Shown here in pieces: positions 19,247 to 20,602 of a stretch of 64,000 nucleotides of DNA; positions within the stretch are counted from its first letter, which is position 1, and each line of letters starts with the position of its first letter. The notes below the pieces were generated by a model. It saw nothing but the letters and a program-made list of their open reading frames with translations, was not told the DNA's origin and searched no databases. This stretch comes from Spirochaetia bacterium. Lineage in GTDB: Bacteria; Spirochaetota; Spirochaetia; SZUA-6; Bin103. Both the position numbers and the translations under genes were made by a program. The stretch lies in contig OZ241863.1 of the NCBI GenBank assembly GCA_965203055.1, positions 1,920,001-1,984,000 on the forward strand, in the 5' to 3' direction.

Positions 19247-20602
19247 ATGGACAAACATGCTTCCGACGAGGCTGTCACCACTACCGTTTCCGCCCTCTCA
19301 GACGACCGCCTGCTGGAGCGGACCAAGGAACTTTCCGGCATCGAACACCATCTCGAAGTCGTCGTGATCGACCACCTGCGCGAGATTCATAGGCGCCGCC
19401 TGTATCTGCGCCTTGGCTTCTCCAGTCTGTTCGATTACGCGGTGCGCGAGCTGGGTTACAGCGACGCCGCAGCGTGGCGGCGCATCAAGGCGATGCGGCT
19501 CTGCGCGGACGTCGAAGGCGTGCGTGCACGCCTGCAGGATGGCTCGATGACGCTGAACGCGGCCGCGCAGTTGCAGCATGCGTTCGACCGGCAGGAGCGC
19601 AAGAAGGAACGCGCGGCGCGTAGCGCGCCGGGCGGGGCCGGGTTCGGGGCTGCCTCTCAGTCGCAGAACGGCTCGGCGCCGTCGCGGCCGGCGGAGTGGA
19701 AGCCGGCGCCGACGCCGGTGCTGGACGCGGAGGCGCGGCGGGAGCTGGTAGAGCAGGCGTCCGGCAAGAGCAGCCGGGAGGTGATGCAGTTGCTGGCCGA
19801 GGTGGACCCGGAGCTGGCGGCGTCGGCGGATCGGGTGCGGCCCCTGGGCGGCGGGCGCTGGGAACTCAAGGCGGTGATCGACGATGAGTGCCGGCGCGGC
19901 TTGGAGCGGCTCAAGGGCCTCCTGTCCCACGTCGATCCGCACATGACGTTGGGACAGCTCATGGGGCGGCTGGTGCGGGAAGGGCTCGACCGCCACGATC
20001 CGGCCCGGCCGCCGCGCGGGCGGCGCGCCGCGCCGGCCAAAGGCGCCGCGCAAACTTCGGCGCCGAAGACGCAGGCGGCCTCGGCTCGCGGAGCCGCTTC
20101 GGCAGCGAAGCAGGTGGCCGGCGTGGACCGCGCCGATCCTTCGGCGGCGAAGGTATCGGCTCAGACGCCGGCGCACCCGGGAGACGAAGCCGCTGACCGC
20201 CCGGACACTTCGGCAGCGAAGCCGGCGGGCGACGCCACTTCGGCGCCGAAGACGCGGCGCCTCGGCCGGCCGGCTGCGGCGCGCGCGCAGCCGGCTGCGC
20301 CGCCGCGGACCCGGACTTCGGCAGCGAAGACGGGCGTGACCGGCCGCGCCATCCCGGCGGCGGTCAAGCGCGAGGTGTGGCGGCGCGACCGGGGCCGCTG
20401 CCGCTACGTGGACCGCACCAGCGGGCGCCGTTGCGGCTCCCAACACCTGCTGCAGATCGATCACGTCGTGCCGTATGCCCTCGGAGGCGCCGCCGAGCCG
20501 AACAATCTGCGCCTGCTGTGCGCCGCTCATCACCGCTACCGCCACGCCGGCGCCGGATGCGGCCGCCCCGGCGAGGATCGTCAGGCGCCGGTAGACCGGT
20601 GA
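19247..20602 (+). CDS. HNH endonuclease with N-terminal helical domain (451 aa)
   Basis: GFSSLFDYAVRELGYSDAAAWRRI N-terminus; RDRGRCRY..RC..LQIDHVVP..GG...NNLRLLCAAHH C-terminus. Confidence 0.9.
   Translation: MDKHASDEAVTTTVSALSDDRLLERTKELSGIEHHLEVVVIDHLREIHRRRLYLRLGFSSLFDYAVRELGYSDAAAWRRIKAMRLCADVEGVRARLQDGSMTLNAAAQLQHAFDRQERKKERAARSAPGGAGFGAASQSQNGSAPSRPAEWKPAPTPVLDAEARRELVEQASGKSSREVMQLLAEVDPELAASADRVRPLGGGRWELKAVIDDECRRGLERLKGLLSHVDPHMTLGQLMGRLVREGLDRHDPARPPRGRRAAPAKGAAQTSAPKTQAASARGAASAAKQVAGVDRADPSAAKVSAQTPAHPGDEAADRPDTSAAKPAGDATSAPKTRRLGRPAAARAQPAAPPRTRTSAAKTGVTGRAIPAAVKREVWRRDRGRCRYVDRTSGRRCGSQHLLQIDHVVPYALGGAAEPNNLRLLCAAHHRYRHAGAGCGRPGEDRQAPVDR
20055..20329 (+). repeat. Six 14-bp hairpin repeats CTTCG-N4-CGAAG inside the HNH ORF
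   Basis: Starts at 20055, 20097, 20139, 20208, 20238, 20316. Confidence 0.9.

Follow-up and report, generated by a model that had tools for sequence, protein, structure and literature searches.

Palindromic DNA is a feature of several described systems. The OB operators of KorB, the parS sites that lie inside the coding sequence of parB/spo0J and the arrays of sopC and parC are palindromic operator or centromere sites, whereas the Rickettsia palindromic elements (RPEs) are mobile in-frame insertions of about 100-150 bp in many unrelated genes. Here we analyze a stretch of 64,000 nucleotides (nt) from an uncultured Spirochaetia bacterium (GenBank assembly GCA_965203055.1, contig OZ241863.1, positions 1,920,001 to 1,984,000 of the forward strand), hereafter called the window, in which an HNH nuclease gene carried by a mobile element contains six copies of a 14-nt palindromic word, all read in the same codon frame. 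An original prediction, made from the letters of this DNA, had described the six copies as an array of hairpin repeats with unique spacers. The results presented below favor a different description, that of a dyad-symmetric DNA word locked into one codon frame of a nuclease gene that travels on a transposon.

Results

Occurrence of the Word in the Window and the Genome

The word CTTCGNNNNCGAAG (CTTCG-N4-CGAAG) is matched at positions 20055, 20097, 20139, 20208, 20238 and 20316 of the window, all within the HNH gene at 19247..20602 on the forward strand. The spacings between these matches are 42, 42, 69, 30 and 78 nt, all multiples of 3, and the six sites share the codon frame NCT TCG GCN NCG AAG. 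Site 1 (20055..20068) and site 5 (20238..20251) both read CTTCGGCGCCGAAG, a perfect 14-nt palindrome with the loop GCGC that is translated as TSAPK. The loop GCAG is found in site 2 (20097..20110), site 4 (20208..20221) and site 6 (20316..20329), which read CTTCGGCAGCGAAG and encode ASAAK, TSAAK and TSAAK, respectively; the loop of site 3 (20139..20152, CTTCGGCGGCGAAG) is GCGG and its peptide PSAAK. Site 2 is the least conserved of the six, showing CCTCG or CCCCG in most paralogs. All the positions, loops and multiple-of-3 spacings previously listed for these in-frame repeats were reproduced. The intervening spacers are indeed unique within one gene, as had been claimed, but they are about 90% conserved between paralogous copies and not hypervariable.

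The window as a whole contains 18 matches to CTTCG-N4-CGAAG, compared with a mean of 0.12 in 100 dinucleotide-preserving shuffles (maximum 1; none of the 100 reaches 18). These matches form three arrays (5599-5871, 20055-20329 and 43547-43827) plus a single site at 54658. The first array belongs to a truncated and frameshifted remnant of the gene on the reverse strand (5436..5912), which has an in-frame stop and is 93.3% identical over 479 nt; its six exact matches agree with the earlier statement that the stem is retained in this remnant, and their spacings of 77, 30, 69, 42 and 41 nt reveal two frameshifts. The third array, with five exact sites, lies in an intact further copy of the gene (43274..44635, reverse strand), and the single site in a small remnant of the family (54555..54726, reverse strand). 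Genome-wide, 215 of the 254 word matches fall inside footprints of the HNH gene family, the remaining 39 having assorted loops and contexts. The word is thus a cis element specific to this family rather than a genome-wide signal. A different palindrome, GGAGT-N4-ACTCC, occurs 78 times in the same genome, which is unusually frequent for a stem containing A/T.

Codon Choice within the Word

To compare codon choice in the word with that of the genome, we computed codon usage from 1991 long open reading frames (ORFs) with high GC content at third codon positions. The codons ACT, GCT and CCT account for 3.4% of Thr, 3.7% of Ala and 3.8% of Pro codons, respectively, and GCA for 3.3% of Ala; more frequent are TCG (29.7% of Ser), GCG and GCC (47% and 46% of Ala), CCG (67% of Pro) and AAG (94% of Lys). 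Sites in homologous genes were located by their peptide alone, blind to codons. In a first sample of 70 loci, 63 genes had a best high-scoring segment pair of at least 300 amino acids (aa) and the others were dropped; these genes contain 107 peptide-defined sites, of which 90 have both stem arms exact. Considering only the genes less than 70% identical to the query, whose sites stand in 47 distinct flank contexts, the last base of the first codon is T in 43, Ser is TCG in all 47, the fourth codon is NCG in 46 and Lys is AAG in all 47. From a wider sample of 150 loci we obtained 112 full-length genes, of which 90 are unique; both linker anchors are present in 83. When one gene was taken from each of 14 clusters of less than 80% N-terminal identity, the resulting 41 sites showed a T-ending first codon in 36, TCG in 41, NCG at the fourth codon in 40 and AAG in 40. 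The final base of the third codon was G in 30 and A in 11 of these sites, never C or T. All such counts overstate independence because the sequences are related, a point that tells against our interpretation and was reduced by de-duplicating flank contexts and by taking one gene per cluster.

The same genes use ACT at 11% and TCG at 35% outside the word, and synonymous change between query and homologs (pS) amounts to 0.44 in the N-terminal region and 0.56 in the HNH domain, so that about half of the synonymous sites have changed. Recoding of the peptide with synonymous codons that break the stem, which the original prediction had named as grounds for abandoning its view, is not what the homologs of the 14 clusters show; nor does codon bias, its other proviso (named for TCG and AAG), account for the codon choice, given the genomic frequencies of ACT and TCG. 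Its view that selection acts on the nucleic acid, and not only on the linker, is therefore borne out by codon choice in the homologs.

The aligned sites carry information above background over precisely these 14 nt, and their flanks are random. Within the word only nucleotide positions 0, 6 and 9 are free, all of them first codon positions; fixed are the second and third positions of the codons, and with them the rare T-ending codon. Through the free positions the encoded residues drift among T/A/P/S/G/V/D at codon 1, A/P/T/V at codon 3 and A/P/S/T at codon 4. Since residues vary at these positions while the bases hold, the DNA word is the conserved layer. Sequence comparison thus indicates that the word is maintained by constraint at the nucleotide level rather than by the peptide it encodes.

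Variation among paralogs follows the same pattern. In 42 copies (the 75%-identical outlier c1319861m was dropped), nucleotide diversity is 0.017-0.043 in stem columns versus 0.094-0.11 in the other columns of the linker, and private variants number 14 in 60 stem columns versus 99 in 232 other linker columns (p = 0.017). Only this comparison within the linker was used for singletons, since the rates of the N-terminal and HNH regions are inflated by truncated copies extended into unrelated flanks. The 83 linkers of the wider sample contain 244 sites of the form CTYCG-N4-CGRAG in 82 distinct contexts, and 242 of these sites are in one frame. The two off-frame sites belong to a frameshifted copy. 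In a 74%-identical copy, L064 (G011:C1:1552330-1553930), the linker is doubly frameshifted and the frame then restored; two words in it read FGGEA and FGAED. The bases of the word are retained in this copy though the peptide is lost.

Symmetry of the Word

The consensus C-T-Y-C-G-N-C-R-N-C-G-R-A-G is dyad-symmetric, with the free positions 6 and 9 as symmetry partners, and its codon lock can be written as [NCT][YCG][NCR][NCG][RAG]. Such a layout is the one expected of an operator to which a dimeric protein binds. Perfect 14-nt palindromes make up 34 of the 82 contexts, and the central step is pyrimidine-purine in 80 of them. The sole variable pair is 3-12, which is T-A in 64, C-A in 10, T-G in 9, C-G in 7 and G-A in 6 distinct contexts.

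A tree of the two folded domains contains a clade, formed by 32 of the 83 genes, that carries three sites with the pattern C·A, C-G, C·A at this pair. Its mismatched sites read CTCCG..CGAAG, the central pair of the stem being C·A. The synonymous choices at its mismatched xP-x-x-K sites are nevertheless complete: the third base of the first codon is T in 37 of 37 (11 of 11 distinct contexts), CCG is used in 37 of 37 and NCG in 37 of 37. In the compensated xP-x-x-E sites T is present in 27 of 30, against a background T fraction of 12.5% and 0 of 15 in unrelated A-x-x-E pentapeptides. The inheritance of a C·A mismatch under full synonymous constraint fits recognition of half-sites (CTYCG, on both strands) and does not fit pairing of the stem. 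Moreover, a stem mismatched at its center would fail to fold, and any mechanism that makes palindromes perfect would erase the mismatch. Half-site recognition explains all the observed states.

Helical phasing of the sites was considered and rejected. Although multiples of 42 nt are enriched among spacings (41 of 137 vs. 9.8 expected), a spacing of 81 nt is about as common as one of 84 nt and the genes are related; spacing therefore looks like the length of a repeat unit.

The Nuclease and Its N-Terminal Region

The HNH gene encodes a protein of 451 aa and is the sole ORF of the element. An AlphaFold2 model built from an alignment of 52 sequences shows helical structure in residues 10-258, no structure in residues 260-365 and an HNH fold in residues 366-433. 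Accordingly, the N-terminal helical region (residues 1-260) spans 19247..20026, the disordered interdomain linker (residues 260-365; predicted local distance difference test, pLDDT, about 30) spans 20025..20341 and holds all six sites, and the HNH nuclease domain, assigned from its Pfam match as well as the AlphaFold2 fold, spans 20342..20545, all on the forward strand. The Pfam match is to PF01844 (E 5.9e-7; 30 bits vs. a gathering cutoff of 21.4) and covers residues 395-433. Among the 52 sequences D405 is invariant, and H406, N420, C385, C396 and C425 are at least 90% conserved; the protein is thus predicted to carry an HNH endonuclease domain with conserved catalytic and metal-binding residues. 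In structural comparison with VIA-align, this domain reaches Z 5.8-6.3 to the HNH domains of IscB and phage GVE2 and to McrA; a Foldseek search of the full model against the PDB gave no match at E <=0.001. Across the gene family, the ratio of nonsynonymous to synonymous substitution rates (dN/dS) lies at 0.43-0.46 in the N-terminal region, compared with 0.18 in the HNH domain.

The N-terminal region modelled alone has an AlphaFold2 pLDDT of 76.7. Its residues 32-189 resemble proteins of the KorB/ParB type: six entries fall in the Z range 4.5-6.4, including KorB (6.4 and 5.8), Spo0J (5.2), VirB (5.0) and SopB (4.9), with 91-99 residues aligned at a root-mean-square deviation (rmsd) of 3.0-3.9, values that lie below the caution line of Z 8-13 for helical proteins. 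A predicted ribbon-helix-helix (RHH) segment follows in residues 195-256, of which residues 204-256 match the RHH domain of TraM with Z 5.8 (rmsd 2.2, 48 of 50 residues aligned), again below the caution line of Z 8; at least 12 other RHH entries score between 4.1 and 5.6, including NikR, ParD, MazE, PutA and CopA. When residues 155-258 were modelled as a homodimer, the score was 0.61 versus 0.00 for the best control, the mark for a dimer being one that, when the tool was calibrated on solved structures, was reached by 20 of 30 homodimers and 1 of 23 monomers. Separate runs share at least 69% of contacts, with a partner pLDDT of at least 64, and the modelled interface pairs the antiparallel strands 204-211 and involves both helices, as in a ribbon of the RHH type.

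Upstream of the gene, a promoter-like site is predicted at 19212..19240 on the forward strand (TTGACT-17-TATACT; 10 of 12 positions matched, in a scan that found 3 sites vs. 0.0 expected in shuffles). It ends 6 nt before the ATG, so the predicted mRNA would be leaderless or nearly so. In the 83 homologs the linker varies between 44 and 197 aa. One homolog of 44% identity, L021 (G006:C4:868147-871584), has a very long linker made of tandem units of about 30 aa with SSAQNQQAPR and DRSGDRTPRHAGS, and contains no 14-nt words.

The Mobile Element and Its Parent Insertion Sequence

The genome consists of one contig of 4,557,819 bp with 68.75% GC. The repeated unit comprises the HNH gene with about 350 bp upstream and about 100 bp downstream, giving an element of 1.79 kb that is present in about 45-50 copies; a blastn search of the genome returned 91 segment pairs at 73-95% identity, most of the long ones at 87-93%, and 43 of the copies extend across the linker. 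Inverted repeats, GGGCGCAYTTCCAAWTTG, bound the copies. In the window the left repeat lies at 18902..18919 (GGGCGCACTTCCAATTTG), where the left ends of 18 copies align and the outer flanks are unrelated, and the right repeat at 20675..20692 (CTTTTGGGAAATGCGCCC), where the right ends of 29 copies align (both given on the forward strand).

An insertion sequence (IS) of 1523 bp has nearly the same ends: its first 24 bases are 96% identical to the left end of the element, and the right ends are alike. This IS is found in eight genomic copies (C1:273723-275245 and seven others) that are 98-100% identical, and looks currently active. It encodes a 478-aa ORF matching Pfam UPF0236 (PF06782), a family that corresponds to ISLre2-type transposases. 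Target duplications of 8-9 bp flank both the IS and the HNH units. Given the same terminal repeats, the same target duplications and the HNH gene as only ORF, the HNH unit is a non-autonomous, cargo-carrying derivative of the 1523-bp IS. None of the 39 word matches outside the gene family falls in any copy of this IS.

The approximately 350 bp at 18902-19246 are modular, many copies keeping about 70 bp of the left end (query 256-324) and then jumping to about 343 or 460. Half-words CGAAG occur in this region upstream of the gene at about 18938, 19004, 19048 and 19067. Near the right end, a stem-loop with a 6-bp stem, GCTTGG-CCG-CCAAGC (20646-20660), is kept in nearly all copies; a simple scan did not report it as a terminator. 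To the right of the element lie ORFs of 101 aa (20755-21060) and 342 aa (21074-22102), the latter having a DPPY motif and looking, by eye, like an N6-adenine DNA methylase. The ORFs flanking the element were likewise identified by eye, as a GH32-like enzyme and this methylase-like ORF.

Distribution

The gene is present in 22 of 41 related genomes, including 20 of the 23 from the same family, where positive genomes contain 1-79 matches each (8-79 in 18 of the 20). The 17 genomes from other families of the order gave one weak match (E 5.6e-4). Among species-representative genomes, 348 stretches encode relatives, and the best 80 of the 348 are all from metagenome-assembled genomes of Spirochaetia bacteria. 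A large protein collection contains 1985 related proteins, all without a name. Among 1.84 billion cluster representatives, a threshold of E <=0.001 is passed by 16,834 and one of E <=1e-30 by 849. In the best 150 of these representatives, the xS-x-x-K peptide occurs at least once in 60 and at least twice in 37; more distant ones are mostly without it.

The stretch itself is contained in 20 sequencing runs from 7 studies, of DNA or unknown type, labelled as sponge or marine metagenomes or with coded organisms; among those listed there is no RNA run. In metagenome contigs from four runs the element is collapsed into short contigs of high depth. A contig of run X5 (depth 40) connects position 18832 directly with 20778, leaving out 1945 nt in which the entire element is contained, and contigs of runs X3, X5 and X11 join 19059 to 20930 with short sides. 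These junctions may represent empty or differently filled sites, possibly of a related strain, although their ends miss the terminal repeats.

Discussion

A Proposed Operator Array and Its Candidate Binder

We tentatively favor, at a little under an even chance, the interpretation that the array consists of dyad-symmetric sites, CTYCG-NCRN-CGRAG, for a dimeric sequence-specific DNA-binding protein, the product of the gene itself being the likeliest binder. The word would then act as double-stranded DNA, forming arrayed binding sites. Because 215 of the 254 genomic words lie in the HNH family, a family-specific binder is expected, and the family's own protein becomes the obvious candidate. Contact with the DNA would be made by the N-terminal region, in which the predicted RHH-type dimer segment, adjoining the linker, is preceded by the KorB/ParB-like helical domain. 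The most economical role would be autoregulation of a potentially harmful nuclease, through a roadblock or repression inside its own gene; alternatively, the sites could tether the protein in cis to its own element. Both roles are the least certain part of the proposal.

Several observations besides the relatedness of the sequences weigh against this interpretation. RHH dimers are common among solved structures, and the passing dimer model may therefore reflect likeness rather than binding; similarly, all structural matches of the N-terminal region are below Z 8 and possibly reflect a mere common arrangement of helices. Roughly half of the sites depart from a perfect palindrome, and A is tolerated at position 8. 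Since the 32-gene subfamily, whose sites are mismatched or decayed, is likewise present in multiple copies, spread does not require the canonical word. The single codon frame leaves room for a role of the peptide or for descent by in-frame duplication. Finally, it is unusual for a nuclease to have its own binding sites arrayed within its gene, an arrangement that might be self-damaging.

A further extension, which we consider doubtful, is that the RHH/KorB-like dimer recognizes the words in all of the about 50 copies of its gene. Binding could then form a network of shutdown that senses copy number, or the HNH domain could nick sister copies for gene conversion, by which intact copies would repair or overwrite decayed ones. 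Such self-recognition would be a protein-guided counterpart of the RNA-guided homing by TnpB/IscB transposon nucleases, and the peptide xSAxK would be a by-product of the operator inside a disordered linker.

Alternative Explanations

The original prediction attributed the constraint to a hairpin, and of this proposal the selection on nucleotides is supported, the hairpin as selected object is not. The words could be stem-loops in mRNA or single-stranded DNA that serve as sites of processing, pausing or binding, or pair mutually within or between transcripts. Single words do fold as hairpins of 5-6 bp (-4.8 to -9.3 kcal/mol), and the 316-nt linker RNA reaches -205 kcal/mol versus -175.7 in shuffles (z -5.5), a surplus that comes partly from words pairing with one another, sites 1 and 5 being paired together. 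In addition, each fixed third-codon base of the stem complements a second-codon base of the other arm (T2-A13, G5-C10, G11-C4, G14-C1), and pair 3 shows some double changes, from T-A to C-G in 7 distinct contexts, besides the T-G wobble in 9. The covariation check that had been proposed does not amount to proof of structure, however: mismatches at pair 3 (C-A in 10 and G-A in 6 contexts) are as common as compensated or wobble states, the stem is otherwise invariant instead of covarying, and changes of T to C and A to G are also favored by GC pressure alone. Extension of the stem beyond 5 bp was rejected, since flanking positions pair at chance level (observed/expected 19/17.1, 16/16.3, 25/24.3, 19/24.1 and 14/15.4), and a stem of 5 bp that includes two A-U pairs has little strength within a transcript of 69% GC. 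The suggestion of small RNAs or processing found no support in Rfam, which returned nothing for 19000-21000 at E <=1. Together with the C·A state stably inherited in the 32-gene clade, these points make a selected hairpin unlikely. Equally improbable, in our estimate, is that the peptide xS-x-x-K is selected and the palindrome kept by mutation, namely by quasi-palindrome template switching with slippage or duplication between 14-nt direct repeats, without any function of the nucleic acid. According to two papers, template switching creates and maintains hairpins and homogenizes the arms of inverted repeats in coding sequence (PMC8794818, PMC8604942). In favor of such a process, 242 of 244 sites share one frame, linkers are composed of units of about 14 and 27-28 aa in tandem, the spacings peaking at 42, 81 and 84 nt (41 of 137 being multiples of 42), and some indels between paralogs run from word to word, for example from site 1 to 3 or from site 4 to 5. 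Yet the peptide varies where the bases hold (T/A/P/S/G/V/D at residue 1, S to P, K to E), and correction of one arm against the other should erase the C·A mismatch that persists in 32 genes. Homogenization of arms also leaves unexplained the constraint on loop position 8 (G 30, A 11 and C 0 of 41, when GCC makes up 46% of Ala codons genome-wide), and duplication would copy the spacers, yet the flanks of the 82 contexts are unrelated. We judge arms of 5 nt, moreover, to be short for the mechanism.

Other alternatives concern translation or coding. The rare T-ending codon and the rare GCA could slow the ribosome in the linker, letting the N-terminal DNA-binding region fold or bind in cis before the nuclease is made. 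The words do sit exactly between the two folded parts of the protein, and codons that are scarce in their families (NCT 3.4-3.8%, GCA 3.3%) are used in 36 of 41 and 7 of 29 sites, respectively; but slowing gives no reason why TCG, a common codon, should be used to the exclusion of AGC or TCC (41 of 41), and leaves unexplained NCG at codon 4, the absence of GCC and the exact dyad symmetry; we regard it as very unlikely. Still smaller is the chance that only a peptide motif is conserved, its codons following from codon bias or recent common ancestry. TCG, GCG, CCG and AAG are indeed common in a genome of 68.75% GC, and copies within one genome are about 90% identical. Bias cannot yield T-ending codons in 36 of 41 sites when ACT, GCT and CCT stand at 3.4-3.8%, or TCG in 41 of 41 when it stands at 30%, and homologs of only 44-57% identity keep the bases though about half of their synonymous sites have changed. 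Almost no weight is left for a CRISPR-like array of repeats and spacers or for a gene overlapping in another frame. Short palindromic repeats parted by unique spacers recall the former, but the repeat has 14 nt and the spacers 16-64 nt, the array lies inside a gene under purifying selection, and the spacers, conserved to about 90% among 43 paralogs, do not match phages or plasmids, as the linker DNA remained unmatched when searched against both (blastn, distant mode). As to the latter, the query copy has an antisense ORF of 415 aa, but the best alternative frame of the linker is open in 39-40 of 72 homologs and the antisense frame of the whole gene in 8 of 72; overlapping ORFs were thus rejected, no alternative frame being open across the linker in more than 40 of the 72.

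Significance

The word offers an unusually clean case of dual coding, in which a DNA sequence limits the residues permitted in a disordered linker; since the residues drift by way of first codon positions, the layer under selection can be recognized. In uncultured Spirochaetia the HNH family takes up roughly 2% of the genome. If the word is bound by the product of the gene, it would show how a transposon-borne nuclease family is controlled or targeted, and a site of 14 bp with a domain of about 250 aa would form a compact pair for protein-DNA recognition that is easily tested. A more general lesson is that repeated short linear motifs in disordered regions of mobile-element proteins call for a look at their codons before being interpreted as signals in the peptide.

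Comparison with Known Systems

A search of full-text literature, not exhaustive, brought up no account of the word or of palindromes arrayed in-frame within genes of the HNH type. A CRISPR array differs in having repeats of about 23-50 nt, compared with 14 nt here, and in being non-coding with variable spacers, whereas the present words, at spacings of 30-78 nt in the query and 30-246 nt in homologs, are in-frame inside a gene with dN/dS of 0.18-0.46. The IscB/HEARO systems, which work with omega RNA, are similar in their HNH domain (VIA-align Z 5.9-6.3; NCBIfam guided_IscB 22.3 bits). That score compares with a cutoff of 175 and covers the HNH part only, no Rfam RNA is present, and Pfam and NCBIfam, searched for RuvC and PLMP parts, named only the HNH domain. 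With non-autonomous IS derivatives the element shares its organization, having terminal repeats and 8-9 bp target duplications in common with the 1523-bp IS; this likeness concerns the vehicle only, as the IS carries none of the words.

Similar in architecture is the REP13E12/DUF222-HNH family of mycobacteria, whose multi-copy genes likewise combine a helical N-terminal region with an HNH domain of this type at the C-terminus (IP..VKR..W.RD..C...DH..P...GG...N..LC..HH). The Spirochaetia gene differs in being bounded by IS-type inverted repeats with target duplications. A Pfam search for DUF222 in the HNH protein gave, at E up to 0.1, HNH families only, and a distant relationship is possible. 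To our knowledge, no codon-locked palindrome has been described for REP13E12. The RPEs are comparable as repeated palindromic DNA that is translated in-frame as part of a protein; the word described here, however, has 14 nt, is concentrated in a single family of genes (215 of 254 copies) and does not represent an insertion.

A parallel is provided by the site systems of KorB, ParB and RHH proteins, in which short dyad-symmetric words, often arrayed and sometimes lying in coding sequence, are bound by dimers. In its predicted structure the HNH protein bears a weak resemblance to both folds, and the dimer modelled for it is of the RHH type. What sets the present case apart is that the sites are in-frame in the linker of their own candidate binder, that they are dispersed in about 50 copies and that the protein has an HNH nuclease at its C-terminal end. 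Coding sequence with embedded binding sites is already known as a kind, and the codon-locked word would be a variant of it.

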